UHGV virus genome: UHGV-1558314
Source: a virus
DNA length: 64,000 nt
Direction: 5' to 3' (one strand)
Positions 30,101 to 63,051 of the stretch are shown one piece after another. Each line of letters opens with the position of its first letter. The stretch's first letter is position 1. Position numbers and translations under genes: made by a program. The notes beneath the pieces are model-generated. The model searched no databases, had not been told where the DNA came from, and saw nothing but the letters and a program-made list of their open reading frames with translations.

Positions 30101-30111
30101 GCACTGATTGT

Positions 30112-42618: not shown

Positions 42619-42636
42619 TGTTGTAGAGGTTTTATA

Positions 42637-42660: not shown

Positions 42661-42763
42661 TTGTTGTCAATTTGCACAATTGTTGTTAACAAAATGCATT
42701 ACATTGACAAAAAAATAAAGGCTCAGTTTGTATAACTGAGCCTCTTGAAATGACACGAACTTA

Positions 42764-46422: not shown

Positions 46423-46631
46423 GAACATATATTATTTGTAAAGATATAATACTACAAACAGCACACATTTGCACTTTGACATAACTGATTGAGTATCAAT
46501 CAATTATGAGTTTATAAAAGTTTTTCAAAAGTAGGGTGTTGTTGTTTGAGTAGAGTGTTGTTAATGCTGTCAGCTGTCTTGTTAGCATTATCGATTGCTT
46601 GCAAACTATCAGCCGTCATAGAACATCACAA

Positions 46632-46665
46632 AAGCAAGCAGACTACAATTGCAGTCTGCTTGCTT
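46632..46665 (-). terminator. Palindromic terminator-like element, copy 1
   Basis: aagcaagcagact acaattgc agtctgcttgctt; 27/28 identical to element at 62977-63004. Confidence 0.45.
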
Positions 46666-46687
46666 TGACATATGTGTAGCATATAGC

Positions 46688-47044
46688 TTATTTGCACATA
46701 AACAATGCAGCAAACCAATTCACTGGCTTGTCAATAAGCTGCTTCCACATAGTCCAATTGTACATGCCATGTGCAAACATTGTAAGAGCAAACAGCAGCA
46801 TACACATTGATACAAGCCAATCAGCAAATGGCATATTGCCCCATCGAATGTACTCGAAAATGCCAACTTTAACAAGCTGAGCAAACAAAATGAGCATTAC
46901 AGCCATTGCAAGTCGCGTCCAGACTACATATTGCTGAGTCTTATCTACAAACTTTGCAATCAATGCTGGCACAAAGTACATAATGTATGCAAACAGCAGC
47001 AAGCAAAAGCCTGCATACAGCAGATTAGAAATAAAAGCTCCCAT
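46688..47044 (-). CDS. Multi-pass membrane protein (118 aa)
   Basis: Four hydrophobic segments. Confidence 0.4.
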   Translation of the reverse strand: MGAFISNLLYAGFCLLLFAYIMYFVPALIAKFVDKTQQYVVWTRLAMAVMLILFAQLVKVGIFEYIRWGNMPFADWLVSMCMLLFALTMFAHGMYNWTMWKQLIDKPVNWFAALFMCK

Positions 47045-47047
47045 ATT

Positions 47048-47929
47048 CTATCGTTTGAATTTGATGAAGTGTTCAGCATCGAGGCCCTCAAATACATACG
47101 GGTCAAGAGTTTCCCAGAAGTTTGAGTATGTCGTTGTCTTTGCAATGCTTGTTTGCTTTGACAAGTTCATATTTGGGTAGCCAAGCATTGCATAGTGTCG
47201 CTCATATATGTGCATTGACGTCGCATTATGCACATATGCGCCAAGCTTAAGACCAAGTTCATTTGCGACAAGTTCTTGCAACAAAGTGAATGCAAACTGG
47301 TCGTTGCAAAAGCCCCAAATGACATCATTGCTTCGCATGTATGTTGTCAAGTACAGCTTATCACCACGAACATTGAAAACAAGATTCAATGTGCATGGCA
47401 TGTCTTTGCCAGTGTAGTTTGCATATTGCGGCTCATAAATGCTAATAACTGCTCGTCTTGTGCATTCATGATTTCGCAAACGTTCAATGACATCTGCAAT
47501 CTGCTTGTGCCAAATTGCGCCATACTGTGAATTGACATTGACACCATCGTCGCTGAATTGCTTCCAACGAGGCAAATAACGTTCAATGCATTCAACTGCA
47601 GGATTGGCTGTCATGTACCACGCAAATTCTGCAGCAGCATTGAGCTTTTTCCATGGTCGTACGTCAATCTTGATTTGCCGCTGTGAAGGGTCCTGAATAA
47701 CTACAGACACATTCAGCAATTCTTTTGTTCGAGTCACTGTTTGTGCATTGTTGCCCTTTGATTCTACAAACTCACCTCTACAATGAAGTTCATACAAAAT
47801 TGAGCGAAATGCTTCTGTTGCAGTGTTTTCAATGATTGTCGTCTGTTGATAACATAAATTTGACGACAATGCTTCAGCATCATTGTACTTTATGCTGTCA
47901 TTGTCATAAGGTGAATTTTTTGTGTGCAT
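47048..47929 (-). CDS. Deoxycytidylate hydroxymethylase-like protein (ThyA-family paralog)
   Basis: RRAVISIY, PCTLNLVF (catalytic Cys), MRSNDVIWGFCNDQFAF with Asp at the base-specifying position, MHIYERH; closely resembles recalled T4 gp42 (MRSNDVVFGFRNDYAW, LHVYSRH). Confidence 0.55.
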   Translation of the reverse strand: MHTKNSPYDNDSIKYNDAEALSSNLCYQQTTIIENTATEAFRSILYELHCRGEFVESKGNNAQTVTRTKELLNVSVVIQDPSQRQIKIDVRPWKKLNAAAEFAWYMTANPAVECIERYLPRWKQFSDDGVNVNSQYGAIWHKQIADVIERLRNHECTRRAVISIYEPQYANYTGKDMPCTLNLVFNVRGDKLYLTTYMRSNDVIWGFCNDQFAFTLLQELVANELGLKLGAYVHNATSMHIYERHYAMLGYPNMNLSKQTSIAKTTTYSNFWETLDPYVFEGLDAEHFIKFKR

Positions 47930-47953
47930 ATTTTGGGATGTTTGTTTTTGTTA

Positions 47954-49048
47954 TCATACAACGACGGTATCTCGTTTGCAATCTGTTCTGTCGAATATCG
48001 AGCAACAATATGATGCAGATTGCTCTTTGATTGCAATAGCTTCGTCATTGTCAAGTGATGAAATACCATCTATGTATGCTTTTGTATTGCCAGCGATGTC
48101 ATCATTTGTTAGCAATGCTGCACGACGTTCAGTACCAAAGAAGCCAAAGCACAATTGACGCTGCAATGCTTCACGAGAAATCTTGTCATCAAACTCGGAT
48201 TTCATGTGTTGCATAAATTCGACAATATCATCAATGTCGCATTGAGTAAAGTCAATGTACAATTTATGCATGTACTTGAATCGTTTGTAGTCTGTTGCAA
48301 GAATTTCTGGGTGCACAATGAACAACGTCTTTTTGCTGTCTATTGGATTTGCAATGACTGACGCTTGAACATAATCAACAAGCACGCCAGATTCACGAAG
48401 TTGCTCAACTGTTTTGCCAAATATATGCCCAAACGTGTCATCAAACCACTTCAAGTATACTTCGTTGTCTTCATCTTTTGATGCGCCAACAATGTAAATC
48501 TCATTGACTCCAAGCGCTTTAAGACGAGTGTCAGATAGCATCGTGTTCAATTGATGCTGCACATACAGCATTGGGCTGCTATGCAAAACTGTTTTGACAA
48601 TCTCACAAGCAATGTCCATATATGCATAGTCAAGCTTTGCAGATTTTGACACATACACTGCACGTTGCTGCAATGGCTCAATTGCTGAGCATGTGGTCAC
48701 AAAGTTGCCAACACATTCTGCTACTGCAATGTCATGCAAGTCATCTGCAATGTACACAATACTTGACAAGTCATCAAATGTTTGAACAAGTTGCTGAAGC
48801 TTTGTTTTGTAATTGCAGAGCATCAATGACTTGATGTTGCAATTGCCAAGCATTGTCTTGATGAGTCGTTGACCTGCTTCAGTGCTGTCACCAGAAATGA
48901 CATGCACATCGCAGTCAAACCAGTTCAACATGTCGATTGCATGCCGAACGCCATATTGCATTTGTTTTGCGAACTTGCCAGATTCATTGAACAGCATTTC
49001 ACCTGACATAATGCCGTCAAAGTCACATACGATTTGAAGTCTGTCCAT
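47954..49048 (-). CDS. HAD-superfamily (KdsC-like) phosphatase domain protein with uncharacterised C-terminal half
   Basis: N-terminal VCDFDGIMSGE ... VHVISGDS ... IADDLHD. Confidence 0.4.
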   Translation of the reverse strand: MDRLQIVCDFDGIMSGEMLFNESGKFAKQMQYGVRHAIDMLNWFDCDVHVISGDSTEAGQRLIKTMLGNCNIKSLMLCNYKTKLQQLVQTFDDLSSIVYIADDLHDIAVAECVGNFVTTCSAIEPLQQRAVYVSKSAKLDYAYMDIACEIVKTVLHSSPMLYVQHQLNTMLSDTRLKALGVNEIYIVGASKDEDNEVYLKWFDDTFGHIFGKTVEQLRESGVLVDYVQASVIANPIDSKKTLFIVHPEILATDYKRFKYMHKLYIDFTQCDIDDIVEFMQHMKSEFDDKISREALQRQLCFGFFGTERRAALLTNDDIAGNTKAYIDGISSLDNDEAIAIKEQSASYCCSIFDRTDCKRDTVVV

Positions 49049-49052
49049 GTTG

Positions 49053-49385
49053 CTACAATTTTGAAGTTAAGTCAATTCGAATTTTGTCTGCGTTGCTTTG
49101 GTCAACAAATCTGTCATCAAAGAAACATTCAACTACGACAAGCTTCTTTGAATTCACAAATTCGATTAGCGATTTTTGCATTGCATCAAGTTGCTTCATG
49201 CATTTACAAAAGCTGCTGTATGACATGATTTGCTTTGGTAACATATCAAATGCGTCTGCAATTCGCTGATGAGCAATCTTTTTTGATGTTGCAATAATGA
49301 CATCTGCTTTGTTGTCATTTGCATGATTGCCAAATATCGCAATATGGTAAACTTTCATTGTATGAGTGATTTTGCTGTTATACAT
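49053..49385 (-). CDS. Hypothetical protein (110 aa)
   Basis: ATG start verified. Confidence 0.3.
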   Translation of the reverse strand: MYNSKITHTMKVYHIAIFGNHANDNKADVIIATSKKIAHQRIADAFDMLPKQIMSYSSFCKCMKQLDAMQKSLIEFVNSKKLVVVECFFDDRFVDQSNADKIRIDLTSKL

Positions 49386-49412
49386 TTATGTTATATATGC
49401 ACATTGTGCCAG

Positions 49413-52400
49413 TTAACAAATTGATGACGTGCCATCAGTATTTGCTACAACTGTCAATGCACTATCAAACTCATCTTGTTGCAATACATGGTCAACTATG
49501 AGTGTTTTGCGAATTGCAGAAAGCTTGGTAAGCAACTGCATCAACACTTGCTGATAATTGATATTGTTGACATCATGCTCAGCGCCAACAATCTGCCCAT
49601 TGCTAAGCTTGCCACTGATTTCGTCAATGAGCAAGATGTTGCCCACTTTGTTTAAGCGTTGAGTCAAAATGAGATGCACGATTGCAAGACCTGCGAAAGT
49701 TCCTTCCATGCCAGACATTTGACTTACACTTCGAATTGACTTCGAGCCCATCAAGTCAATCATCTTCAACACATTGTTGTCATTGATGTCAAAGAACACT
49801 CGGTAGTTCAATGAATCCAGCAAATCATTGAGCTGTGCATTCAGTGATGTTGCAATTGCTGCAAAGACATATGAAACTAAGCCTCGTTTGCTTGTGCACT
49901 GCTTATATGCATTGTACACCAAGTTTGCAATGTTCCACTTTTTCGAAGCTTGCAAATCTTTCTTGAGAGCTTCAATTCGCACATTGTTTGCTGATAAGTC
50001 TGCTTGCATTGTTGCAATTTCTGCATTGATGCTTAGCAGTTTTGAGTTCGCTTCAGTTTCATGCTGCTTAGCATCATCAATGTCGACTTGCAATGCAGCA
50101 TTTGTTGTAATATGCTGCTGAGTTTGCTGTGCATGTTCAAGTGCAAATGCTGCAGCAGTCTTATCAATCTCAAGTTGTTTAAGCGCAGACTCATATGTCG
50201 CTTTCTTATCATACTCTGCTTGAGCAATTTCAAGTTCAGCATTTATTGCAGCCAGTTCTGATTCTACTGTAGATTTTGATTGCAATACATCTTGCTTTGC
50301 TTGTTCAGCTTTACGTTTGATGTCTGCAAGTTGATTTGTGATATCTGCAATTTGCATTTTGACTGCTTCGACTTCAAGCAATGTTGCTGCAGTAGCCATT
50401 GGTTGTGCAATGAATGCATCTAAGTCTCTTTGCGCATTGACTACAGTTCTCTGCAAATCATTGAGCTTTTCTGCATGCATGTCATATGCTGCTTTGTGTG
50501 CTGGATTCAGTGCAGCAATTATTGCATTTGAATCTGTAACATCTATGATTGCTGCTTGCAGTTGCTCAATTTCATACTTCAAATTGCCAATTTTGACAAC
50601 ATTCTCATTGAATTGCTCTGTCTTTTGCGCACATTCTTGACGCAACTTAGCAAGCTCAGTTGACAACCACAGCTTGTATGCTTGTCCTGTGCCAGATGTC
50701 AAGTCATTTGTACATACAGGGCATTTGTCGTTTTCAAGTTGCTTTTGCTTGTCTATAACATTGTCGATGTTTGTTTTTGCAGCAGATATTTCTGTTCTAA
50801 GTGCATTTTGAACAGTGTTGATGTCTTCAATTTGCTTTTGCAAAGCATCTATTTTTGCCCGAGTGTTTGCATTGTACGACTTGCCAAGATTTATCAGCAC
50901 AGAATCAATGTGCTGCTTTGCTGCATCATATGCAAGCTTTGATTCATCAAGCTTTGTTCTGTACAATGACTCTGCATGCGCAACTTCTTTCTGCACTTTT
51001 GCAGATAGCTCATTCTGTTTTGTAAGCAGCTCAGCATATGTATTGTGCAGCTGTGAGCCAGATGCTATGACATTTGTGTATGCTGTATTAGCTTCATTGT
51101 CAATATTAGTGAGTTGCTGCTCAATCTGTGCTTTTGCTGTTTGCAACTTAGACATATCTTGCAATGCAAGTGCAGCAATGTCAAGCTCAACTTTGTGAAT
51201 CTTTGCAATGATGCCATCGATATTTGCTGTTGCATCTTCTATAGTTAAGATGTCTGCAGGAATTTGATGTAGTTTCTTTGAGAGCTCTTCTACTTTTGCA
51301 CGAGCTTTTGTAAGCTTCGCGGACCACTCTTTTTGATTATCTTGTCGTAACTGCAAAGAGTAATTGAGTTCATTGCAAGTTGTATTGAGAGACTCAAGTT
51401 CTGCTTTTATTGCAACATCAGTCAATGCGGGCTTACTAAGGCCATCAAACAATGCAGCCTTTGCAGCATCATTAGAATTGCCAAGCTGTACAAATGTATT
51501 GATGCCAAGAGTATCAAGTAGCCAGTCATTCAATGAATTTGAGTCCATTGCAATGATTTGGTCAAGTAGTGTCTGATTGATACAAACATATCGCGACAAT
51601 TCCCAGATAGAGCCAAAGATTGCATATAGCGTGTCTTTGATTTCATGCTGCGGCACTACGTAGTCATCTGACAATCTTACAAGCTGAACAGTCTCATTGA
51701 CTGCTGACACGTTATCTCGCCATGAGCCATCTGCATTTATTCGAGAACCTCGTTTGAATTTGCGTTCAAGTGTTCGAATCAATTTGTAGTGAACATTTTG
51801 ACCTGCTACTACATGCACAAAGACACAAGAAGCTTCAAGCTTATCATATGACTCATTGTCAATCAATTTGTCATTGAAGTATGTCAAAGCGTTCTGCTTT
51901 GTTGCTGCAGAAGACTGTTCAGCGTCAATAAAGCCAGTCAGCAGCCATTTGATAAGTCTGAAGATTGTAGTCTTGCCATTGCCATTGTTGCCTCTAACTT
52001 GTGTAAGCTGTGCAAGATTGTCAAAGCTGACATCAACATCTTTCAATGCCATGAACTGATTTGCTTTAACATTTTGAATGACATATTTTGCAACTTCAGT
52101 GTCAAAAGACAATTTATCAATTTGTTCATCAATCAATGACTTGAACATGTCAACAAACTGCTGAGCATCTTCAGTAGCAACTATGGCATTGCGTTCAATG
52201 TATGCATTGACCCAGTCAAGTGCAGCGTCTTTAAGCCATTCAGCAGTTTGAACCTTTTGCAGCAAATTGTCGCCATTTGCGTCTACAGCATTGATTGAAT
52301 CAATGACAGCAGAATCATACAGAATGTCAATTGCAGCAACAACATATGAACTTACAAGATTCTGTGCAATGCGCTCAACAATACCAGACAGTTCGGGCTT

Positions 52401-53339
52401 TGTGACCTTTGACTTGATTTTGATTTTATTGATGCGGCCAGGGTTGATGAGTGCAATCTTGTCTGTTTTGACATCATTATCAATTGTGATTGTATGATAA
52501 TGCACAAGCTGCTCAAGTGGATGCCACTCTACCACAATTCGCTTGTTGTCAATATCGATGTCAAGCAAGTTGTAGCCATGTTCTGCAGTACCATGCTGTA
52601 TTGCAGTGTCATTCAACAAATAGTCGCCTTCACCAAAATCTCTGACAATTGGCGAGCCGCAATATGTTAATGTCTTATCACCAGCAACCCATATTGCATG
52701 CTTATGAATGTCACCCATTGCAACAAAGTTGCTATTAAATTGCATTGCATCTATACGACTGTCATTGTCACCACGAACAATACAATCATCAAAGTTGACA
52801 CAATTCTTTACAGGGTCATGGAACAGCTCAATGACACACATTGATGACAATGCTGCAATCTGCGATTCATCAAGTGATGCCCAAGGCGAATATGTGCCAC
52901 CAGACCACTTCTCATTTTGAGCCCATACTGCAGCAGCAAAACCAGGTGCAAGCAGTTCAACTCTTGAACTGTTGATATACTTGATTCGCTTGTCATCAAT
53001 TGCAGTTACAAGCTTGTCAATGCTATCTGTCCACTGCATTTGTGAACCATCACCAGCATCAAATGTGTTATCACGTTGCTTCAAATCATGATTGCCAGCA
53101 GTAATGACAATTTGAAGCTTGTCATTGACTTCAAGCATGCCTTTGAGCAGCTTAACAAACAGCGACTCTTCAAGTGAATTGCTATTCCAATGCTCAAACA
53201 CGTCGCCGACAATGAATACAAACTCAACTGACTTTGCTTTGTCAATTAGTTGTTTGTTGATGTGCTCATATTCTACGAAACGTCGTAAATGACCTTGTCG
53301 AACATTATATTGAATGTCTGCTATGTGAAGTGCTTTCAT
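49413..53339 (-). CDS. Fused Mre11/SbcD-like nuclease and Rad50/SbcC-like ATPase (1308 aa)
   Basis: N-terminal phosphoesterase motifs (LHIADIQ, IVGDVFEH, TAGNHD) resemble recalled T4 gp47; then Walker A GNNGNGKTT, long coiled coil, zinc hook CPVCTNDL, C-terminal LLIDEISGKL. Confidence 0.65.
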   Translation of the reverse strand: MKALHIADIQYNVRQGHLRRFVEYEHINKQLIDKAKSVEFVFIVGDVFEHWNSNSLEESLFVKLLKGMLEVNDKLQIVITAGNHDLKQRDNTFDAGDGSQMQWTDSIDKLVTAIDDKRIKYINSSRVELLAPGFAAAVWAQNEKWSGGTYSPWASLDESQIAALSSMCVIELFHDPVKNCVNFDDCIVRGDNDSRIDAMQFNSNFVAMGDIHKHAIWVAGDKTLTYCGSPIVRDFGEGDYLLNDTAIQHGTAEHGYNLLDIDIDNKRIVVEWHPLEQLVHYHTITIDNDVKTDKIALINPGRINKIKIKSKVTKPELSGIVERIAQNLVSSYVVAAIDILYDSAVIDSINAVDANGDNLLQKVQTAEWLKDAALDWVNAYIERNAIVATEDAQQFVDMFKSLIDEQIDKLSFDTEVAKYVIQNVKANQFMALKDVDVSFDNLAQLTQVRGNNGNGKTTIFRLIKWLLTGFIDAEQSSAATKQNALTYFNDKLIDNESYDKLEASCVFVHVVAGQNVHYKLIRTLERKFKRGSRINADGSWRDNVSAVNETVQLVRLSDDYVVPQHEIKDTLYAIFGSIWELSRYVCINQTLLDQIIAMDSNSLNDWLLDTLGINTFVQLGNSNDAAKAALFDGLSKPALTDVAIKAELESLNTTCNELNYSLQLRQDNQKEWSAKLTKARAKVEELSKKLHQIPADILTIEDATANIDGIIAKIHKVELDIAALALQDMSKLQTAKAQIEQQLTNIDNEANTAYTNVIASGSQLHNTYAELLTKQNELSAKVQKEVAHAESLYRTKLDESKLAYDAAKQHIDSVLINLGKSYNANTRAKIDALQKQIEDINTVQNALRTEISAAKTNIDNVIDKQKQLENDKCPVCTNDLTSGTGQAYKLWLSTELAKLRQECAQKTEQFNENVVKIGNLKYEIEQLQAAIIDVTDSNAIIAALNPAHKAAYDMHAEKLNDLQRTVVNAQRDLDAFIAQPMATAATLLEVEAVKMQIADITNQLADIKRKAEQAKQDVLQSKSTVESELAAINAELEIAQAEYDKKATYESALKQLEIDKTAAAFALEHAQQTQQHITTNAALQVDIDDAKQHETEANSKLLSINAEIATMQADLSANNVRIEALKKDLQASKKWNIANLVYNAYKQCTSKRGLVSYVFAAIATSLNAQLNDLLDSLNYRVFFDINDNNVLKMIDLMGSKSIRSVSQMSGMEGTFAGLAIVHLILTQRLNKVGNILLIDEISGKLSNGQIVGAEHDVNNINYQQVLMQLLTKLSAIRKTLIVDHVLQQDEFDSALTVVANTDGTSSIC

Positions 53340-53341
53340 AT

Positions 53342-53383
53342 TCTAAATGAGATTTAGATTATATGTTGATATTGTACAACATG
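53342..53383 (-). promoter_or_regulatory. Promoter box plus conserved leader hairpin upstream of Mre11-Rad50 fusion gene
   Basis: Minus strand GTTGTACAATATCAACATATAATCTAAATCTCATTTAGAAT then ATG. Confidence 0.45.
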
Positions 53384-53418
53384 CAAAATGCACTTGCATT
53401 TTGATACAACGTATGTCA

Positions 53419-53766
53419 TTATTTTGCAAGCATTTTGCTGATTGCATCTATCACAGTTTCACTGAGCAAGTAGTAGACAACGCTTATCAGCAATGATATC
53501 AGTACTGCAGCTGTGATAAATTGCAACGCATTCACAATTGCACGCACAAATGTTATCTGTGTGTTGTATGCAAGCACTATGCAGCATAGCACAATAATGA
53601 CACACCAGACTACAATTGCATATGCAGGCATCAATGAATTTGTCCATATGCAGTACAATACAGTAGTTAGCATCAAAAATGCTATTGCTCTGATGACTGA
53701 CACAATGATGTCTATGTAGAGCTTCATTACACGTAAATGAACTCTTGGCTTATGCGGTTTCATCAT
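53419..53766 (-). CDS. Small multi-pass membrane protein
   Basis: Start at ATG 53764-53766 overlapping upstream stop (ATGA); three hydrophobic helices. Confidence 0.35.
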   Translation of the reverse strand: MMKPHKPRVHLRVMKLYIDIIVSVIRAIAFLMLTTVLYCIWTNSLMPAYAIVVWCVIIVLCCIVLAYNTQITFVRAIVNALQFITAAVLISLLISVVYYLLSETVIDAISKMLAK

Positions 53767-54995
53767 GACTTTATGTACAATTCTGCAAGTTGTCTGGTGT
53801 ACAATCGTGGATTGTGATATGCTTTCCAATATGCAGTAGACTTTATTGCAGCAAGAATCTCATCATAATGTTTGACTGCTTTTGCTACAACTTCATCAAG
53901 TACATGCAAATCTTCTACACTAACAAGCAGCCATTTTTCTACAATGTCAATGAATTCTTGATTGCAATTAAAGCCATATTTGTAGTTGCAAGTGTCAAGT
54001 ACAAGTGGGATGCAGTCATTTGTCAGTGCTTCAAAAAATCTACGAAGACTGAAACAATTCTCATCATATGATGGAATGCTTAATGTAAACTTGGCAGTCT
54101 TGATGAGTTGCAAATACTCTTCGTATGGAATCAGAGGACCATTGTGCTTCCACTGATTGTTATGTCGTCTTGTTGTGTACTTGAACAAAAACTTTGAACT
54201 GTCAAGCTCACAAAGATGGTCCATGCGTAAAATGTAGTTATAGCGGTCTCTTCTATCAGGCCAACTGTCAGTCATTGCAAACACAAAGTCTCTTTGCTTG
54301 TCACATTTTGCTGACATACCTCTATGCTGACACATGCAGTACCAATATTGCTGCGATGGACTGAACTCGAACTTTGAGTGATGCTCACTGCCATCTTTGC
54401 ATTGTTGAACGTAAATATTGTCAGGCACAAAGTGAAAGTAGAAATGTCGAATTTGCAAGCCGTCAATGTAGTCAAGCTTATGCTGCAATGGGTCCTCACA
54501 GAAATTGTAACACTGAATGCGTTTTGCTGCAGCATACTCAGCAACTATGAATGTGCACACCCATTGCAATGCGATGTCTTCACTCTTCAAAAAGTCAACA
54601 AGTGGCTCATTTGGATGCGCTTTGCATTCATTGAACATTTTGTACCACTTGCATTGCTCCATGTCATACTTGGAGACTGTATTGCCATTAAAAAATGACA
54701 CAGTATCAATTTTGAATGCCTCAAGTTGTTTATGCACAATGTCGATTGCTTGTGCATATGTGACAGTCTCATCAGACATTATTTGTGCAAACTTGATTGG
54801 ATGCGCATGCAAATTTGCAATTGTGTCTGCTGACATTTTGCGCTGTGTATGATAATCGACATACAAAAACTGACACTTGTCTGTAAGCAATTCAAGCATT
54901 GCTACAGATTTCCATCGAATTGCTTGAAAGAAATTGAAGTGCGCAGTTTGAAAAATGAGATGCGTAGGCTTGTCAGAATGAGTCAAAGTTTGCAT
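53763..54995 (-). CDS. Glycosyltransferase-like protein (GT-B-type C-terminal motif), paralog B'
   Basis: IPSYDENCFSLRRFFEALTNDCIPLV resembles GT-B donor-binding motif; paralogous to 58026..59582 (shared EDPLQHKL, PSQQYWY). Track start is TTG; ATG at 54993-54995 used. Confidence 0.45.
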   Translation of the reverse strand: MQTLTHSDKPTHLIFQTAHFNFFQAIRWKSVAMLELLTDKCQFLYVDYHTQRKMSADTIANLHAHPIKFAQIMSDETVTYAQAIDIVHKQLEAFKIDTVSFFNGNTVSKYDMEQCKWYKMFNECKAHPNEPLVDFLKSEDIALQWVCTFIVAEYAAAKRIQCYNFCEDPLQHKLDYIDGLQIRHFYFHFVPDNIYVQQCKDGSEHHSKFEFSPSQQYWYCMCQHRGMSAKCDKQRDFVFAMTDSWPDRRDRYNYILRMDHLCELDSSKFLFKYTTRRHNNQWKHNGPLIPYEEYLQLIKTAKFTLSIPSYDENCFSLRRFFEALTNDCIPLVLDTCNYKYGFNCNQEFIDIVEKWLLVSVEDLHVLDEVVAKAVKHYDEILAAIKSTAYWKAYHNPRLYTRQLAELYIKS

Positions 54996-56158
54996 GGACA
55001 AATGTCGCAGTTATGTTGATGTTTGTGTTTATTTATGAAGTCATATGTCACTGCAAAAAAGTGCTTTGCAATGTCATATCGAGTTTTCAAATATGCTGCT
55101 TGTCGTTCACAAAATGCTGCATAAATATCTGGGTGTTGTTTGAATGCTGCAATGCGTTGCTGTACTTGTTCTGCAGAATGCACATATGACACTTTGCTCA
55201 AATATACATCATCTGCAAATAATCGTTTGTCTTTGTCAACTGCGCAATCAACAAAAGTTGCAATTCGTGCAACAATTGCTTCACCGACACGATTTGGTAT
55301 TAGCCCATATTGCTCATATTGCTGTTCGCCGATAGCAATGTGTGCTGCTGCATATGACATTGCATATGGCACACTATAAAATGGCACACTAAAATCAAAT
55401 GAACAATTTGACTGCAGCAATTGTGTTTGTGCATCAGACAATCTACTTGTCAAGTTGCCTGTATATTTGTGCTCACCAAGAAAACTTGAGCGACAGCCTG
55501 AATCTACATAGTATCGAATGACTTTGTTTATGCGACTGTCAGATAGCATATGCCAATCTCTTGTAGCATATATCAAGTCTACTGTTTTTGCGCCAATATG
55601 ACGAGGCTCTATCGCAACATTGCTGTATGTTGGCAGCATAAACAATGGCAGCCATTTGACATTGTTGAACACTGAATGCTCATTTGACAAATTCATGCAC
55701 TGGCTAAGTTCAAGTACTGGCTCATCATACACGCCATGTAGCTCAACTCTGCCTGCATGCACAAAGTTGACACGCTTAAATGGAAATCGCATATCAGTGC
55801 AAACTGTCATTCTTGCTGCAATAGACATTCGCCACATAGCATGCAGCTTAACAACTGCTTCTGCTTGAGGTCGAGGCAACATATTTAGCAAATCAATCCA
55901 GCCGCCCCACAAAATCCAAACATCATTTGAACAGATGTTGAATTGCAAACTCAATATGTCTTCTACTGTTGTAGCAATAATGTCATGCCCATTGATGCTT
56001 GCAAGGTGTTTTCGTTGATTTGCAATAATAATGACTTGACTGAATGGAGACTCTGGAAATGACACAAGCGCTTTTGCAAACAACACGGGTTCTTGCGACA
56101 CCAAGTTGTTTGAGTATGGGTCGATTATGCAATCAAGCTTGTGTATGAAGAGTCTCAT
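54983..56158 (-). CDS. Hypothetical protein (391 aa), paralog A' of 59579..60745
   Basis: Shared N-terminus MRLFIHKLD vs MSKLFILKFD and TDMRFPF vs TDLRFDF; sits immediately upstream of a GT-like gene. Confidence 0.4.
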   Translation of the reverse strand: MRLFIHKLDCIIDPYSNNLVSQEPVLFAKALVSFPESPFSQVIIIANQRKHLASINGHDIIATTVEDILSLQFNICSNDVWILWGGWIDLLNMLPRPQAEAVVKLHAMWRMSIAARMTVCTDMRFPFKRVNFVHAGRVELHGVYDEPVLELSQCMNLSNEHSVFNNVKWLPLFMLPTYSNVAIEPRHIGAKTVDLIYATRDWHMLSDSRINKVIRYYVDSGCRSSFLGEHKYTGNLTSRLSDAQTQLLQSNCSFDFSVPFYSVPYAMSYAAAHIAIGEQQYEQYGLIPNRVGEAIVARIATFVDCAVDKDKRLFADDVYLSKVSYVHSAEQVQQRIAAFKQHPDIYAAFCERQAAYLKTRYDIAKHFFAVTYDFINKHKHQHNCDICPCKL

Positions 56159-56889
56159 TTTGCAGATGATTCAAAAAATTTGTAGACATCGCAGTTAGCA
56201 ATGTGGTCATTCCAAGCATCTTCAGAGTCTGCAACAAAGCCACAATGACAGCGTTTTGGCTGCCAAACTGGTTCAACTACTGCAGGCATTGCTTCTTCAA
56301 TAGTGTTTGCAGGTTCATTATCTGCTGGCAATACTTCAACGTCTTCAACTTGTGCTGCATCTTGTTGTGCACGCTGCTCAATGACATTGCCCTCAAAGTC
56401 AAACTGAATGCCAGCTTGTTCTGCTTTTGTACGATTATTACGAGCTACGAACAAATACGCAAAGATGAATTCGACAAGCGCTATGGCAAGTGACTTCAGT
56501 GCATTGACAAGAAGCATGATGCCTGTTGATAAATGGCCGTCAAAGCTCAAAAACACGAACACACATGTAAAGCATGACATAAACACTGCAATCAGTGGAA
56601 TGTTCTTGTATTTTGGCAACAAATCAGAGTTGACTGATGTAAGCAACACAACGAATTGATAACCTATTGCAAGCCAATAGTCGCCAAACACTGCATAGAT
56701 ATGCGTAGTGATGCCAATAAGAAATGTGATAGTCACAATCATAATGAGCAACACACTTGTCAGAAAGTCTGCAATAGAATTGCTGAGCTTGTCATACCAG
56801 TGTTTGTTGACAATTGACGTGTTGGCTACGCGCACTTTACTAAGTGCATCTATGCCGCTTTTGATATTTGATTGTGCTTTCATACACAT
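56155..56889 (-). CDS. Multi-pass membrane protein with C-terminal Cys/His-rich soluble domain (244 aa)
   Basis: Several hydrophobic helices; C-terminal CHCGF...HIANCD; ATGA overlap with next gene. Confidence 0.4.
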   Translation of the reverse strand: MCMKAQSNIKSGIDALSKVRVANTSIVNKHWYDKLSNSIADFLTSVLLIMIVTITFLIGITTHIYAVFGDYWLAIGYQFVVLLTSVNSDLLPKYKNIPLIAVFMSCFTCVFVFLSFDGHLSTGIMLLVNALKSLAIALVEFIFAYLFVARNNRTKAEQAGIQFDFEGNVIEQRAQQDAAQVEDVEVLPADNEPANTIEEAMPAVVEPVWQPKRCHCGFVADSEDAWNDHIANCDVYKFFESSAK

Positions 56890-57136
56890 ATAACGTTATA
56901 TCATATCTACACACAAAGCAAATGCTACTGCAAGTGCAGCCATAATTGCATATACGACTATCGATGCAGTATAATCTGATTCAGGATTCCACTTATCAGG
57001 TGTGTTAAGCTTGTGATACTTGTCTCGTCTCATCTTGAGTCAAAAAATGATGGCTGCTGCTACATTTTGTGAAATCATGTGCAGCAGCCATCTGGCAGGT
57101 TTCTTGCTTTGTAAAGCTTGGATAGAGGATGGATTT

Positions 57137-57195
57137 TATATGTTGATATTGTACAACATGCAAAATGTATTTGCATTTTGATACAACATATATTG
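57137..57195 (-). promoter_or_regulatory. Promoter box with adjacent palindrome
   Basis: tatatgttgatattgtacaacatgcaaaatgtatttgcattttgatacaac, near-identical to 53360-53410. Confidence 0.45.
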
Positions 57196-57411
57196 TCATT
57201 TTGCACAGTCTGATGCAATTAAATCTTTGTCAAAGCATTCATCTATAATGTCTTCAATAAGATACGCTTCGACATTGTTAAGCTTCAAGATATCTACGAG
57301 TTTTGCTTTGATATCGCAAGCTAATGCAGATTCGACTGTATGCAATATGACTGATGATACGACATGCTTGTCTGTCATCATTTGTAATTGCTGTGGTGTT
57401 ACTCTACTCAT
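57196..57411 (-). CDS. Small acidic hypothetical protein (71 aa)
   Basis: ATG start overlaps Tmk-like stop (ATGA). Confidence 0.3.
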   Translation of the reverse strand: MSRVTPQQLQMMTDKHVVSSVILHTVESALACDIKAKLVDILKLNNVEAYLIEDIIDECFDKDLIASDCAK

Positions 57412-57980
57412 GCGCCAAGTTCAGCTAAGCATTTCAACACATTGTCTTGCAGACTTGCATTGTTGTCAATTTCGACAATATGCAATGGTGAGTTCTTTCG
57501 CCACTCATCATATGCAGCAATCATTTCATTGCGTTTGCTGACATCAATGTTGACATCACCGCAAAAATTATCGACAAAATCTGGCACAACATCACGCTTG
57601 CATAAGAACACTACGTGCGGCAATGTTGCAAGCTTCTTTTCATATGCTTCAAAGAATGCTTGATGCTTATCAGTGTGCAGCTCTTTGTAAAGCGTTGTGT
57701 TGAAGATTTGATGCGTGATGAATGAACGGTCACACAAAAACGTTGCTTTGCCAAAGCCTTGAGAGTCATTTCCAATGAACTCTAAGAAGAAGCGCCAATC
57801 ATAAAAGAACGCTTCATTGAGGTCCCAAGGTTCGGGCATTGGGTCATCACCTGACTCATGCTGCTGCCACCAAGAACGAGATGTTCGTTTGCAATTGATA
57901 AACCATGGGCGCCACTTCATCAATTCATTGATGAGTGTTGTTTTGCCTGAAGCTTCTACACCTTCAAATATCGCTATCAT
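57408..57980 (-). CDS. Thymidylate-kinase-like P-loop nucleoside monophosphate kinase
   Basis: P-loop FEGVEASGKTT and CDRSFITHQ (DR-Y/H-like). Confidence 0.55.
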   Translation of the reverse strand: MIAIFEGVEASGKTTLINELMKWRPWFINCKRTSRSWWQQHESGDDPMPEPWDLNEAFFYDWRFFLEFIGNDSQGFGKATFLCDRSFITHQIFNTTLYKELHTDKHQAFFEAYEKKLATLPHVVFLCKRDVVPDFVDNFCGDVNIDVSKRNEMIAAYDEWRKNSPLHIVEIDNNASLQDNVLKCLAELGA

Positions 57981-58025
57981 TGTGTATTATGTTTGATTTT
58001 TGATTACAGTACAACGTAGTTATGC

Positions 58026-59582
58026 TCATTGCACTTCTACGAATGGCTCTTTCAACACAAAGCTGTCACCATTGCAACATGCGGCTGAGCCATCGTCTGC
58101 ATCAAGTGCGCATGACATATCAGACTTGCAGAACTTGCAATATGAACATGACCATGCATGACTCATAAAGTTGTTTGCTTCACAAATTACACAGCGCTCA
58201 TGTGAAAGTGTATTGTCGCAATTGTCACAAGACTTCTTGATTGGCACATCTTTATTGATATATGCAAGATGCAATGCAATATCATACACAAAGTCACCCG
58301 TATATTGCTGAATGAAATCAGTGTGCCACAACTCTTTTAACAATTGTGTATGTCTATATGGCTGAACAATGTCTTCAAGATGCTGCAAGTCATCATCGCT
58401 AACCATGAGCTTCTTAATGACAAACTGTTTGAACTGCGGCCATCTGTCAAACATATAGAGTTTGCATGAGTTGTGCACAAGTGGAACACAGCCAAGCACA
58501 ATGCTTTCACAGAATCTACGCAAACTAAAACAGTTTGCATCATATGACGGCACAATCAATGTGAATCTGCTATGCTTGATGAGTTCAAGGTATGTGTCAT
58601 ATGGCAGTAGCTTGTCTGACAATGGCTGCTGTTGCTTGTCCCTGCTGAAAAATCTGAACACAATGCCTTTATCAATTGCATCTTGATTGTGCAGATGCAT
58701 GAGTTTGTTGATGAGTTCTGTGCGTTCAGTTTTGTCTCGCCAAGTATTCGTCAATGCAAATGCAAAATTCAGTCGCTTGTCATCAAACGTCGCTTCAATG
58801 TCATCCCAAGTTTTGTCATGCAAATACCAGTATTGCTGTGATGGGCACCATCCATAATATGCAATAGCGTCTTGTTCTGCTGTAACGTCATACACATATG
58901 CAGAATTGTATTCAAGGCCAAGCCCTTTGACATTGTTGCAGTCATGAAAGTACCAATGCTGCACTTTGAATATCTTTGATGCACTGAATGCGCTTTCATA
59001 TGGCCCTGAATAGCGATAGTCAATGTAATTGAGCTTGTGCTGCAATGGGTCTTCGACAAAGTTGTTTATGACTGTGCCTTGTTGTTTGCCATTAGTCTTG
59101 CGAGCATTCAATGCAATATTGTACTGCATAATGACTGACAGCATCTCATACACTACATACATGAGTGCTTTGTAGACTGAGCCTGCTGCGTCAATTAGCG
59201 GCAAATCACGTTTGACTGATGCAGTACCAAATGTCTTGCAATATGCAGAAAATGTATCAAGTTCTGCCTGTTGAAATGAATTGCATGCGCCATTGAATAT
59301 GTTGAATGTTGCAATGTAGCTCATATTACAAGATGTCATTGACATATCAAGACGCTTCATAATGTCAGCAATGCGACATTGAGCAAAATCTGACACATCA
59401 ACATATTTGACATGATGACCTGATGCAGTCAAGCCAACTGCGACTTCTTTCATTTGTGGCACAAAGCCTACTACAATGAACAAGTCATCTTTGTTTGCTC
59501 GTTCAAACATTGCTGCACTTTTCCAAGTCAATGAATTGAAAAAGTCTATGTAGCCAGTCTGTGTGATGATATGTGTTCTCAT
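58026..59582 (-). CDS. Glycosyltransferase-like protein (GT-B-type C-terminal motif), paralog B
   Basis: VPSYDANCFSLRRFCESIVLGCVPLV; C-terminal Cys-rich extension (CDNCDN...CVICE...CSYCKFC). Confidence 0.45.
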   Translation of the reverse strand: MRTHIITQTGYIDFFNSLTWKSAAMFERANKDDLFIVVGFVPQMKEVAVGLTASGHHVKYVDVSDFAQCRIADIMKRLDMSMTSCNMSYIATFNIFNGACNSFQQAELDTFSAYCKTFGTASVKRDLPLIDAAGSVYKALMYVVYEMLSVIMQYNIALNARKTNGKQQGTVINNFVEDPLQHKLNYIDYRYSGPYESAFSASKIFKVQHWYFHDCNNVKGLGLEYNSAYVYDVTAEQDAIAYYGWCPSQQYWYLHDKTWDDIEATFDDKRLNFAFALTNTWRDKTERTELINKLMHLHNQDAIDKGIVFRFFSRDKQQQPLSDKLLPYDTYLELIKHSRFTLIVPSYDANCFSLRRFCESIVLGCVPLVHNSCKLYMFDRWPQFKQFVIKKLMVSDDDLQHLEDIVQPYRHTQLLKELWHTDFIQQYTGDFVYDIALHLAYINKDVPIKKSCDNCDNTLSHERCVICEANNFMSHAWSCSYCKFCKSDMSCALDADDGSAACCNGDSFVLKEPFVEVQ

Positions 59583-60745
59583 GATTTGAATGTTTGTTCA
59601 AGAATTGTGTAACACTGCACAATCATTACTGCAAGAGCTTTTTGCTGTGCTTGTTTGCAATCATCAAAATTTGTGGGCGCAGTGCGTACGCGTGTTTTGC
59701 TATTAAGTGTCGCAAATGTCGCGTAGTCATCGAAGCCTATAATGTCAGCAAATAGGGCAATTGGCTTATAATCTACAAGTATGTTGCAGCAATTTGCAAG
59801 TACGCCTTCAACCCATCGATTTGGCAGCAAGTCTGCTTGCACATACAATGAATCACCAACTACAAGATTGTATGCCGACTGTGACATTACACGCGGCATT
59901 GCATCGTATGTGACTTTGTATTTAAGTGTAAAGTTTGGTGCTGCTGATTTAATCGCAGACAAAATTGTGTCATCAAGATATGATGTTATGAGACACGTGT
60001 CGCACATATGTATGACAAATTGTTCAATCACACTTCTACGATACTCGTCAAGATATGTGAAACCTGCACAACTTGCACAGCATGCATATTGCTGCTTTAT
60101 GTCAGCAAAGCTACGCACATGAGCTTCAATTGCATTTTGCATCGTTACTTGTAGTTTAAGCAATCTTGGCTCTTTAATGTATTGAAGCTTCAATGCATTG
60201 ACTGCTGCAATGATTTGCAATGGGGCAAACACACATTGAGACTCATCAAGCCAAGCGTATTTGAGATTTTTGTGCTGGCATAGATGCGTAATGTTGTCTT
60301 TTTGTGATTCTAAGTACTCTTTGTAATTGTGCAATCGCTTTGTCAATGTGCATTCTTTATCAAAGTCGAATCGCAAATCAGTTGTTAGTGTAAATTTGCG
60401 AGCGTTTGACAAACACCATGTTTTGAATGCATTCCACAGAACATCTTGCTGAAATTCTGAGCAATGTTCAAGAGCAGCCTTTGAACCTTGCCAGAATATT
60501 GCGCAATCATCTGATTTTGCGCACTTCAGCATATCTTGCCATGCATGTATGTTATTGATAATATGCACATTATCATACACAAGCTCATCAAGTATTGCAT
60601 GCTTGTTCTCAGGGTCGCCAAACACATATACAGCATCAAACATTGTCTGCACAAAACCTGCAAATGCAATAGGTTCTGTATGCTTAAGATGCTGTACGTC
60701 TGAACGCACGCATGTGTCAAATTTCAAAATGAATAGTTTGCTCAT
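59579..60745 (-). CDS. Hypothetical protein (388 aa), paralog A
   Basis: ATGA overlap with downstream GT-like gene; paralogous to 54983..56158. Confidence 0.4.
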   Translation of the reverse strand: MSKLFILKFDTCVRSDVQHLKHTEPIAFAGFVQTMFDAVYVFGDPENKHAILDELVYDNVHIINNIHAWQDMLKCAKSDDCAIFWQGSKAALEHCSEFQQDVLWNAFKTWCLSNARKFTLTTDLRFDFDKECTLTKRLHNYKEYLESQKDNITHLCQHKNLKYAWLDESQCVFAPLQIIAAVNALKLQYIKEPRLLKLQVTMQNAIEAHVRSFADIKQQYACCASCAGFTYLDEYRRSVIEQFVIHMCDTCLITSYLDDTILSAIKSAAPNFTLKYKVTYDAMPRVMSQSAYNLVVGDSLYVQADLLPNRWVEGVLANCCNILVDYKPIALFADIIGFDDYATFATLNSKTRVRTAPTNFDDCKQAQQKALAVMIVQCYTILEQTFKS

Positions 60746-61442
60746 ATACTTTGCAATTATCTATTACATGTTGATATTGTACTTCATCTATGATGTGATT
60801 TGCAATGACACCATATGAGGCGTCATACATTGGCATCTTCTCATATGACAATGCTGCGTCAAGATTGCATATCACATAATTGCAATGCACAATGTCATCT
60901 ACATTGTCACTAACTGCTACGATATTGACACACTTTGCAAGAAATGCATCATCAAAGTCTACTTGATTGCATGCAACCTCATAATCTGCTGCGCTTCTTG
61001 GGTACCAATATAACTCAATGCCAGCACTACTAAGTAGTCGCAAGCCATCTATGTGATGATACAAGTCAACAAAATGCACTTGCTTAACGCCTGCTTGCAA
61101 AATAAGCTTTGCGCAATCAATGCATGGACTGTATGTTACATACAGCACTGCGTCATTTGCGGTCGCATTGCCATATTTGCACAGCTTCATCAATGCGTTT
61201 GATTCTGCATGCAAAACTTCTTTGTTGGTTTTGATACCTGCCGATGTTGCATGCTCACAACAATTTGACATGCCAGTTGGCATGCCATTGTAGCCATCTG
61301 AAATTATGCAACCATTTTTTACAAGCAATGCGCCAACTTTTGCTCGCTGAGCATATGAATTTAATGACCAAAGCTCAGCCATTTTAAGATATATGAGATT
61401 TCGTTGAAACTGCTTTGTTTCAGACCAAGTTAGCCATTTCAT
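60717..61442 (-). CDS. dCMP deaminase (zinc-dependent cytidine/deoxycytidylate deaminase family)
   Basis: HAESNAL ... SPCIDCAKLI zinc-binding motifs. Confidence 0.7.
   Translation of the reverse strand: MKWLTWSETKQFQRNLIYLKMAELWSLNSYAQRAKVGALLVKNGCIISDGYNGMPTGMSNCCEHATSAGIKTNKEVLHAESNALMKLCKYGNATANDAVLYVTYSPCIDCAKLILQAGVKQVHFVDLYHHIDGLRLLSSAGIELYWYPRSAADYEVACNQVDFDDAFLAKCVNIVAVSDNVDDIVHCNYVICNLDAALSYEKMPMYDASYGVIANHIIDEVQYQHVIDNCKVYEQTIHFEI
60766..60785 (-). promoter_or_regulatory. Promoter box embedded in 3' end of dCMP deaminase gene
   Basis: acatgttgatattgtacttc about 25 nt upstream of ATG 60745. Confidence 0.35.
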
Positions 61443-61446
61443 ATGC

Positions 61447-62829
61447 TTACAGTGAGTTTATAATTTTGATAAAGTCTGTTACAATGTTTGTATGCAACTC
61501 AATGAGATAGTTGTCTTGTAATGTCATAAGCTCATCAAGTTCATCTACACTTAATGACTTGAAGACTTCTGCACAATGCTTGGCATTTTTGATGTGTGCG
61601 ACTTTATGATACTTGATAAAGTCAGGACACACACAATTATTCACGTACATACAAGGCAAGCCTGCAAGCATTGATTCAGTTGCTCTGAATGTAATTGCGT
61701 TGCATTGTTTCATATTCTCTTCACACACAATGTATGCAAAGTCGAACTGCGACAAGTATGTTAACATGTCAAAATACTTGATTGTGCCATTATAGACATG
61801 TGGCATATCAATGTCGATATTGCCGACAACATGAGTTTCGATGTCTGCGCAGCCAAGCAAATCAATGACTTCTTGTTTGCGTTCAGCGCACATGTCATTC
61901 CAAGCAACCATCGGCATTGCAGTAGTCAACTTGCCTGATTGCAATTTTGCTAAACGTTTTTCGTTATGTGATGCATACAATGGAATGCCTTCAAGTCTTG
62001 CATGCTGAATTGTGTTGACATTGATTTCTGTCAGCATTGACAACGCATTATGCATGTTCTGTGCTTGTGTGACAACTGTCATCTTTTTGCAGCGCAATCT
62101 AAAGTTTGCAATGTGTGGCACGAGTCGTAAATCATACCACAGCCATACAATGTCACCCTTCCATGACTCAATAAGCTGCTTGTGCTGTTTGTAGATGACT
62201 GACTGACTCATCAAGTCATTCATTGCTGAGCATACAATGTACAACACACCATATTTGTCAATTGAGTGCTGCACATAGTCAACTGAGCAGCATAGCACAT
62301 CTTTGTCGAAAAGTTTTGGGTCATGCACTTCTGCATCATCTACAATAAGATGTGCCTTGTATTGATGCTGCTTTGTTGCATCAATGATGCGAGCAATTGC
62401 AAAGCATTCTCTACTTTGAATGTCTGTCTTATCTTGTCGTGGTTGGTCTTGTGTTCGTACAGGATATGCAGGCTTAAGTATTACAGGCACAAAATGTGTT
62501 TTTGCAGAATATGGTGCATCTACTGCAGCAAACTCCGCGTTGCATCGTTGTGAATGCAGATGTCGTGCATATGATTGCAACAATTCATGAATCATTGCAA
62601 TGTACTCTTTCAATTCAAACAGCTCGTGTACAGTTGCGTTTGTTATGTCGACTACGACAGTTTGTCGCACAATTGGATACACACAAATAACGTAATCATT
62701 ATATGATAGTGGAATGCCTATAAATGCTGAGCATCTGTTTCGAAGCCATGCAATGCAATCAGCGTCAAACACAATTTCATATTGCTGCTGCAAAGCATTT
62801 AATTGCGCTATAATCAAATCATTGTGCAT
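61447..62829 (-). CDS. Hypothetical protein (460 aa), possible third glycosyltransferase-like protein
   Basis: C-terminal FDFAYIVCEENMKQCNAITFRATESMLAGLPCMYV loosely resembles the same GT-B motif. Confidence 0.3.
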   Translation of the reverse strand: MHNDLIIAQLNALQQQYEIVFDADCIAWLRNRCSAFIGIPLSYNDYVICVYPIVRQTVVVDITNATVHELFELKEYIAMIHELLQSYARHLHSQRCNAEFAAVDAPYSAKTHFVPVILKPAYPVRTQDQPRQDKTDIQSRECFAIARIIDATKQHQYKAHLIVDDAEVHDPKLFDKDVLCCSVDYVQHSIDKYGVLYIVCSAMNDLMSQSVIYKQHKQLIESWKGDIVWLWYDLRLVPHIANFRLRCKKMTVVTQAQNMHNALSMLTEINVNTIQHARLEGIPLYASHNEKRLAKLQSGKLTTAMPMVAWNDMCAERKQEVIDLLGCADIETHVVGNIDIDMPHVYNGTIKYFDMLTYLSQFDFAYIVCEENMKQCNAITFRATESMLAGLPCMYVNNCVCPDFIKYHKVAHIKNAKHCAEVFKSLSVDELDELMTLQDNYLIELHTNIVTDFIKIINSL

Positions 62830-62846
62830 ATTCGTATTGTTTTATC

Positions 62847-62975
62847 ATATATGAATATATTGTACAACATGTATTGAGCTTTTGCACAACATATGTTGTT
62901 AAAATATCATCATTGTACAACATAAAGCGCATATTTGCACGTTGTGTTGCTAAAAATATTGTTATTGTACACAAA
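62847..62975 (-). promoter_or_regulatory. Promoter region with three copies of the TTGTACA(A) box
   Basis: atatattgtacaacatg (62857-62872), cattgtacaacat (62911-62923), ttattgtacac (62962-62972). Confidence 0.4.
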
Positions 62976-62976
62976 A

Positions 62977-63004
62977 CAAGCAGACTGCAATTGCAGTCTG
63001 CTTG
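62977..63004 (-). terminator. Palindromic terminator-like element, copy 2
   Basis: Perfect 28-bp palindrome caagcagactgcaa|ttgcagtctgcttg downstream of 63052..63597. Confidence 0.45.
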
Positions 63005-63051
63005 CACTTGTTATTAACCCTTAAAATCAATGACACTATGTCAATGTCATT

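Follow-up and report, generated by a model that had tools for sequence, protein, structure and literature searches.

The 64,000-nt stretch of the virus genome UHGV-1558314 analysed here (the window) raises the question of why two intergenic loci flanking 16.3 kb should carry nearly the same 28-nt palindrome. Nearly all open reading frames (ORFs) of the window lie tightly packed on the minus strand, so the hairpins are read throughout on this coding strand. The palindromes are probably intrinsic transcription terminators that were recently copied between junctions of the phage lineage and kept alike by conversion or template switching, without any extra sequence-specific role. Copy 1, CAAGCAGACTaCAATTGCAGTCTGCTTG, is found at 46635-46662 and copy 2, the perfect version CAAGCAGACTgCAATTGCAGTCTGCTTG, at 62977-63004; one base differs over the 28 nt, and none of 100 dinucleotide shuffles gave any match to the palindrome within 3 mismatches. 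A first-pass annotation, which had described two such palindromes one base apart downstream of the genes at 46688..47044 and 63052..63597, is borne out on the minus strand in both respects. The distance from the stop codon of 46688-47044 is 25 nt to the palindrome of copy 1 and 21 nt to its extended stem, while copy 2 lies 46 nt past the stop codon of 63052-63597. The unit shared on the minus strand is slightly longer than the palindrome, GCAAGCAGACTGCAATTG[T/C]AGTCTGCTTG(C)TTTTGTG at 46627-46666 and 62970-63005, and no further full or half copy occurs in the 64-kb window. Both copies are present in independent assemblies (IMG/VR, ENA, Logan and other metagenome records), and therefore the palindromes are not an assembly artefact.

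As RNA, the stem of copy 1 reaches 16 bp through an AAAG/CUUU extension, and the loop is AAUU in both copies (coordinates and arms of all features are given in Table 1). The centroid fold of copy 1 has an energy of -26.2 kcal/mol (z -4.6 against shuffles) and copy 2 folds at -27 kcal/mol (z -4.3 against shuffles), the stems as a whole being put at -23 to -26 kcal/mol, with z about -4.5. On the minus strand the tails at the three sites now known, the third of which is described below, read TTTTGTG, TTTTGTG and TTTTGTTTG, and the plus strand is without a T-run. Copy 2 was the top terminator-like match on the minus strand in a scan of 44-64 kb, and copy 1 was passed over solely because the scanner carries its stem on into the U residues at the start of the tail. 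Intergenic regions of more than 200 nt are few, and two of them (300 and 222 nt) hold the copies; about ten other minus-strand elements of the window are built alike, with stems of 12-14 bp, loops of 3-5 nt and TTTTTG tails. As in intrinsic terminators generally, a stable G+C-rich stem of 13-16 bp with a short, 4-nt loop is followed directly on its 3' side by a U-rich tract, and the whole comes after a stop codon where a gene block ends, in gene orientation. From this anatomy both palindromes are predicted to be Rho-independent (intrinsic) terminators for minus-strand transcription, and we infer actual termination at them. With a promoter-like motif coming after the hairpin that follows the stop codon, each site would be a terminator-promoter junction. 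No Rfam 15 family was matched at the gathering threshold anywhere in the window.

A third copy was found with a pattern permitting variation at two polymorphic stem positions. It is located in an IMG/VR relative about 19 kb before the starting point of the window and reads GCAAGCAGGCTGCAATTGCAGTCTGCTTGTTTTGTTTGC (hairpin GCAAGCAGGCTGCAATTGCAGTCTGCTTGTTTTGT), 46 nt past the stop of one gene, of 264 aa, and 113 nt ahead of another, of 151 aa, after which comes a class II ribonucleotide reductase containing an intein. It is also present in a 181-kb ENA contig, k119_20060 of ERZ27260843 with 181,037 bp, the carriers being about 95-98% identical to the window. The three family copies score 25-31 against each other, and all other terminator pairs stay inside the shuffled null or close to it (99th percentile of the null, 14), so the earlier description of the other window terminators as unrelated was essentially right. 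In a phage from SRR14089581 (45-68% amino-acid identity), each of the three equivalent sites has a different hairpin of its own, that of site 2 (AAGAGACTACTAATTTAGTAGTCTCTT-ATTTTTGTG) having a marginal resemblance to the family (score 15) and those of sites 1 and 3 none, which indicates that the hairpin family is lineage-specific and recent; tentatively, site 2 is possibly the original copy. In three relatives at a greater distance, of which 35, 16 and 22 kb were covered, no repeated terminator family came to light. The suggestion that the pair is a duplicated element is consequently supported and extended by the third copy in close relatives and its absence from the equivalent sites of the distant one, and the search for further copies, empty within the window, succeeded outside it. 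About 90-100 kb of the ~175-181 kb genome was inspected, three copies being a lower bound.

Similarity among the copies ends at the hairpin and tail. A longer duplicated segment was considered and rejected: flank alignments were marginal and on the upstream side only (GGGTTAGTAA, p ~0.016 before multiple-test correction), and the downstream likeness is the promoter motif. Convergence was likewise rejected for copies within one genome, where 14 independent palindrome positions and about a dozen terminators lead to an estimated ~1e-6 identical pairs; three identical copies among the dozen or so terminators of one genome are thus copies. Outside the phage, a scan of 596 Gb of bacterial genomes for the degenerate core returned five matches, four of them followed by T-tracts and three of those four lying in unrelated bacteria (Lactobacillus, Segetibacter and Aurantibacter). 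The carriers are a Lactobacillus metagenome-assembled genome (MAG; GAAAGCAGACTGCAATTGCAGTCTGCTTTCTTTTGAT), a Segetibacter MAG, Aurantibacter aestuarii and one metagenome contig (L019), and one Lactobacillus terminator has 26 of 28 bases in common with the palindrome. We estimate that five is the number expected for random stems among hundreds of millions of terminators, and the bacterial matches would then represent convergent use rather than homology; the same core with a T-tract in unrelated bacteria indicates that the sequence is simply a good terminator stem.

The behaviour of site 1 in relatives points the same way. Near-identical DNA was absent from 50,697 phage records, and a known phage as source was ruled out by the lack of a close DNA match, the helicase encoded after copy 1 being about 29% identical to those of Bacteroidota (Chryseobacterium, Tenacibaculum) and Sphingomonas jumbo phages. 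Closer relatives come from metagenomes: the window is matched at 95.5% identity by an IMG/VR contig, IMGVR_UViG_3300045988_152288, which measures 174,628 bp, and other assemblies reach 97-98% at the protein level. Gene order around copy 1 is also conserved in L005, L006 and L008, whose helicases are 63%, 47% and 43% identical. In each of these three, a hairpin, a T-tract and then a promoter motif occupy the site-1 position, between the ThyA-like/118-aa genes and the helicase, and the stems are unrelated to one another and to that of the window. A position that is conserved while its sequence turns over freely is the signature of an intrinsic terminator and not of a sequence-specific site, and in this respect too the elements resemble known intrinsic terminators. 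The slot from terminator 1 to the helicase promoter differs in content, being empty in L008 and holding one 75-aa ORF in L005, two ORFs (285 and 90 aa) in L006 and, in the window, a candidate ORF of 35 aa. Between the site-1 terminator and the promoter motif of L006 (2706-2762) there are also three tandem copies of the 19-nt sequence TGTTGTGTCATTTGCAATC, which could be iterons or operators.

The promoter-like motifs that follow the hairpins form a set of their own. The 24-nt motif TGTTGTACAATATCAACATATAAT has six matches within 3 mismatches, all on the minus strand, where 0 are expected; it lies 20-60 nt upstream of start codons and is often preceded by TTTTGCA or by GTGCAAAT-N10, and looser forms come after many hairpins, both copies included. 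A motif of the type GTGCAAAT-N10-TGTAGTATTATATC is found upstream of the helicase in L005, L006 and L008 as well (43-63% amino-acid identity). At site 2, three tandem motifs sit between copy 2 and the 460-aa gene, with TGTGTACAATAACAATAT (62956-62973) reaching into the T-tail of copy 2. Of the three, L011, a distant relative, has the last only, which indicates that two motifs were added in the lineage of the window, as an insertion of ~85 nt. Spacing between hairpin and promoter motif is variable: at site 2 the motif overlaps the tail, and at sites 3 and 1 it lies ~75 and ~155 nt away, respectively. A sigma-70 scan remained at background level (60 found, 58 expected), and TGTTGTACAATATCAACATATAAT is without -35/-10 elements at 17-nt spacing, i.e. 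not sigma-70-like. TGTTGTACAATATCAACATATAAT may represent a phage-specific promoter class, which suggests a phage-encoded or phage-redirected polymerase. Altogether about ten terminators and at least ten promoter motifs are distributed over the 64 kb.

Eight distinct hairpin versions exist within the species, and all their differences fall at two stem pairs. Pair 8/8' is A-T or G-C, the latter by a double change in L012 and L018 that preserves pairing, and in other strains G.T (L015 and L032) or A.C (L016 and L017). Pair 11/11' is G-C, with G.T instead in copy 1 of the window, of L003 and of L013, and A.C in L020. Copy 1 is identical in L003 and L013 and has its inner part flipped in L020, the strain variants of copy 2 at arm position 8 are A-T, G-C and A.C, and a strong fold, of -17.8 to -25.7 kcal/mol, is predicted for all the strain variants. 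Reverse-complementing a G.T form yields an A.C form exactly, a relation that indicates flipping of the palindrome interior and not selection. Other hairpins of the phage have flipped as well (Table 1), flips being recurrent in the phage population, which points to template switching or gene conversion, and template switching between inverted repeats is known to give spacer inversion and arm homogenisation (PMC8604942, PMC8794818). The strand asymmetry of the mismatch (G.U on the minus strand and A.C on the plus strand in copy 1, likewise in copy 3 of L015) was considered as a sign of action in RNA and dropped, the opposite A.C sense state being present in L020, L017 and L016. In a covariation test on the 8 variants the support was not significant, with one compensatory pair that 265-347 of 500 shuffles equalled. 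Among strains, the spacer immediately preceding copy 1 has diverged far more than the hairpin, which is therefore either constrained or homogenised.

The events could be pictured as follows. A 13-16 bp G+C-rich RNA hairpin followed by UUUUGUG would close one minus-strand gene block, and a conserved promoter-like motif would then start the next. One terminator would recently have been copied to other junctions, likely by ectopic recombination or gene conversion in a PeSL-like manner, in a direction that can be guessed at from site 2, and the copies would probably have been kept similar by further conversion and palindrome template switching. Several points weigh against this reading. The promoter motif ahead of the units is not sigma-70-like, the flanks hold no significant shared sequence marking a larger duplicated segment, the copying mechanism being presumed, and covariation support is statistically nil. 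The polymorphism of position 8/8' at two sites could reflect conversion between copies, a shared constraint or a mutational hotspot. Lastly, the candidate 35-aa ORF lies right behind copy 1 with no promoter motif between it and the hairpin, so its expression, if it is real, needs read-through, and copy 1 would have to be leaky, an attenuator or a processing site. As read by eye, strain differences in this ORF are mostly synonymous, with an in-frame 15-nt deletion in L020, and the IMG/VR strain has a 1-nt deletion near its 3' end.

Such read-through is one of the points that favour a terminator also recognised by its sequence, similar to nut/boxB sites, at which a phage antiterminator, RNase or RNA-binding regulator would coordinate read-through or processing at the three junctions. 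This would be consistent with three of ~12 strong terminators sharing a sequence and all three preceding units for replication or nucleotide metabolism (helicase; 460-aa protein with dCMP deaminase; ribonucleotide reductase), with a conservation within the species much better than that of the spacer just upstream, and with the still recognisable site-2 hairpin of the relative at 45% amino-acid identity. We nevertheless consider it unlikely: the unrelated hairpins at sites 1 and 3 of that relative leave no conserved regulon, stem bases change (the double A-T to G-C replacement included) and A.C mismatches are tolerated, and neither Pfam/PHROG scans of the neighbouring genes nor Rfam provided a candidate binder or match. 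That the three hairpins form a lineage-specific regulon of addressable terminators, switched by a phage factor to read-through or processing before the helicase, dCMP-deaminase and reductase units, is very unlikely; if true, it would time the nucleotide-metabolism and replication genes and express the small ORF behind copy 1.

Alternatively the palindrome could act in DNA, as the operator of a dimeric protein or as a recombination or cruciform site, for instance repressing adjacent promoters or bounding the 16.3-kb replication segment for inversion or excision. A perfect or near-perfect 28-bp palindrome with a central CAATTG would suit such a role, copy 2 abuts a promoter-like motif, palindromic copies are direct and inverted repeats at once, and small indels and hypervariable spacers lie beside them. 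The T-tract, however, is on one strand only and in the same orientation at three sites, the distance to the promoter motif is variable, unlike that of an operator, and palindromy is no less marked in all the phage's other terminators. Moreover, the genes from copy 1 to copy 2 keep one order in each of the relatives inspected, no joint from an inversion or deletion being present there, and orthologous sites 1 and 3 carry unrelated sequence. We hold this role to be highly improbable, and the proposal in the first-pass annotation of an additional protein-binding site found no support in promoter spacing, sequence retention or constancy of stem bases; its terminator-like character, on the other hand, was supported by the hairpin with a U-rich tail on one strand, by placement and by the position kept in relatives. 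Least probable of all is a small mobile palindrome of REP or MITE type, spread by a dedicated transposase or nuclease and a terminator only incidentally. Several near-identical intergenic copies whose similarity stops sharply at the hairpin borders would agree with it, but there are three copies only, and neither target-site duplications nor terminal flanks in common are seen beside them. Among the proteins scanned, which represent a small part of the genome, none is of RAYT or IS200 type, no genome-wide transposase search having been made. IMG/VR and metagenome scans gave no copies outside the phage species save at orthologous sites, and the bacterial matches have different flanks and look convergent.

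Table 1. Coordinates of the hairpins, promoter-like motifs and genes discussed in the text; L-numbers denote contigs other than the window.
Feature	Position	Strand	Details
Copy 1, predicted terminator hairpin	46627..46666	-	AAAGCAAGCAGACTGC-AATT-GTAGTCTGCTTGCTTT then TGTG; 16-bp stem, one G.U pair
Copy 2, predicted terminator hairpin	62970..63005	-	GCAAGCAGACTGC-AATT-GCAGTCTGCTTGT then TTTGTG; perfect 13-bp stem
Hairpin, L005 (helicase 63%)	site-1 position		GCACCCTTGAC/GTCAAGGGTG-TTTTTT
Hairpin, L006 (helicase 47%)	site-1 position		AAAGCAGTCAT/ATGGCTGCTT-TTGTTG
Hairpin, L008 (helicase 43%)	site-1 position		TGCACTTCGAA/TTCGAAGTGCA-ATTTTT
Matches to promoter-like motif TGTTGTACAATATCAACATATAAT	22948-22971, 27794-27817, 42636-42659, 53358-53381, 57135-57158, 60763-60786	-	<=3 mismatches
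Looser forms of TGTTGTACAATATCAACATATAAT	16250, 20684, 25714, 29686, 46446, 62859, 62912	-	motif scan
Promoter-like motif GTGCAAAT-N10-TGTAGTATTATATC	46443..46474	-	upstream of helicase gene; 3 matches, 0.01 expected
Three tandem promoter-like motifs	62849..62973	-	TGTGTACAATAACAATAT 62956-62973, TGTTGTACAATGATGATAT 62904-62922, TGTTGTACAATATATTCATAT 62849-62869
AT-rich 13-bp hairpin	46480..46508	-	CATAATTGATTGA-TAC-TCAATCAGTTATG, after candidate 35-aa ORF; -12.5 kcal/mol
Loop flip, terminator	38260-38287		GTTA in window vs TAAC in L014
Loop flip, hairpin	46480-46508		TAC in window vs GTA in L003 (IMG/VR relative)
Centre flip, bidirectional terminator	30058-30102		T in window vs A in L025
Inner-stem flips, copies 1 and 3	window 46635-46662 vs L020; L015 4821-4850 vs L016		exact reverse complements, e.g. 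TGCAATTGTA/TACAATTGCA
Apparent terminators with family core and T-runs	L027 7018-7041, L031 5-28, L029 6144-6167, L030 321-344, L019 2646-2669
118-aa ORF, function not assigned	46688..47044	-	last gene of unit closed by copy 1
Candidate 35-aa ORF (MTADSLQAIDNANKTADSINNTLLKQQHPTFEKLL)	46512..46619	-	start codon 11 nt past extended stem of copy 1
Rad3/XPD-like DNA helicase	44510..46387	-	first gene of unit starting after copy 1
181-aa ORF, coiled-coil-like, function not assigned	63052..63597	-	last gene of unit closed by copy 2
460-aa ORF, function not assigned	61447..62829	-	first gene of unit after copy 2; dCMP deaminase gene next

Among the remaining terminators an older kinship is weakly suggested at 33454-33485 and by the outer stem GAGGCTCAG. 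A possible second, older family has the outer stem (G)AGGCTCAG / AAAGCTCAG and occurs in the window at 42717-42745 and 16362-16391, in L012 at 4710-4742 and in L011 at 3410-3444. The terminator after gp32 keeps the core GCTCAGACAGACAT.GTTTGTCTGAGC between relatives at 45-63% amino-acid identity, with compensatory outer pairs (AAAG..CTTT vs GAGG..CCTC). The element at 30058-30102 is a perfect inverted repeat with 22-nt arms and an A-tract and a T-tract on both sides, lying between the plus-strand ORF 29508-30050 and a minus-strand gene of 1113 aa, and it resembles a bidirectional terminator.

The genes around the two sites encode the Rad3-like helicase, two proteins of the thymidylate-synthase family, an SbcC/metallophosphoesterase-like protein of 1308 aa and dCMP deaminase, the 1308-aa protein and a thymidylate-synthase-like protein belonging with the 118-aa ORF to the unit closed by copy 1; just past the window edge, relatives encode gp32, a second helicase and thioredoxin. 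The 118-aa gene is syntenic in L005, L006 and L013 and absent from L008. Pfam and PHROG scans of the 118-, 181-, 460-, 264- and 151-aa proteins were uninformative and revealed no domain that binds DNA or RNA. The minus-strand genes at 47048-47929, 42764-43822, 60717-61442, 58026-59582 and 53763-55001 include the two thymidylate-synthase-family paralogues and the dCMP deaminase, as well as two proteins for whose close homologues weak Exostosin/GT47 glycosyltransferase matches were obtained. Together, the thymidylate-synthase paralogues, the deaminase and these two proteins suggest a modified, possibly glycosylated, pyrimidine in the phage DNA.

Near the third copy, the intein-bearing reductase (L015 722-4003 vs L032 10001-13987) differs in length between strains: that of the IMG/VR strain has 1093 aa, and that of the 181-kb ENA strain reaches 1328 aa and includes an additional HNH_3 endonuclease domain, a presence/absence polymorphism of the homing endonuclease. 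Upstream of the reductase in the SRR14089581 relative (L034 1-590), what appears by eye to be a tRNA gene cluster replaces the 264-aa and 151-aa genes; no tRNA genes were found in the 64-kb window.

Compared with known systems, most likely no new kind of element is revealed here, and the hairpins would be ordinary terminators with a recent copying history. What sets them apart from intrinsic terminators elsewhere is that stems are normally unrelated, whereas here three copies in one genome are almost identical. Template-switch mutation is matched exactly by the strain differences, in which loops are exchanged for their reverse complement and one-sided mismatches are moved to the opposite arm, but it is a mutational mechanism and not a functional family, and it accounts for upkeep and flipping and not for arrival at another locus. 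REP and BIME elements are intergenic palindromes of bacteria, likewise repeated as hairpins downstream of genes and able to terminate or stabilise transcripts. REP elements number tens to hundreds of copies in bacterial chromosomes and are linked to RAYT transposases; the present family differs in having three copies, in a phage, with no transposase seen among the proteins scanned. The boxB of lambda nutL and nutR has a 5-bp stem and a pentaloop and stands early in the transcript after the promoter, with boxA before it and no U-tract. The likeness lies in nearly the same RNA hairpin, one base different, at two distant sites of one phage, but the hairpins described here are long, followed by a U-tract and placed at unit ends, and we know of no N-like protein for them.

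The closest known analogue would be the PeSL cassettes of T4-type phages, terminator/promoter junctions for which recombination between cassettes has been proposed as the route of spreading (Arbiol et al. 2010, PMC2839356; Comeau et al. 2014, PMC4122927). A genome has about 50 PeSLs, which are defined mainly by a sigma-70 consensus promoter with the stem-loop inside or adjoining it, often with polyG/polyC stems, the stem-loop attenuating upstream transcription ahead of the conserved promoter (PMC2839356, PMC4122927). Here too, intergenic terminator/promoter junctions are repeated in a large phage with gp32-like and gp13-like proteins, and the junction at site 1 may likewise coincide with a variable gene slot (nothing, or ORFs of 35, 75 or 285+90 aa). 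The promoter motif of the present phage, however, is not sigma-70-like, the spacing between hairpin and promoter ranges from overlapping to ~155 nt, the hairpin is common to three junctions only (about half of the genome having been inspected), and only small indels are found beside the hairpins among close strains. For annotation of this phage group, the elements provide transcription-unit boundaries and a strong promoter motif. Taken together, the comparisons suggest that in an uncultured phage of ~175-181 kb, a distant relation of Chryseobacterium, Tenacibaculum and Sphingomonas jumbo phages, terminators are not just replaced in situ: copying also carries them from one regulatory junction to another, and flips of the palindrome reshape them. 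This likeness to the modular shuffling of PeSLs in T4-type coliphages and vibriophages offers concrete sites for testing the idea outside the T4 group.

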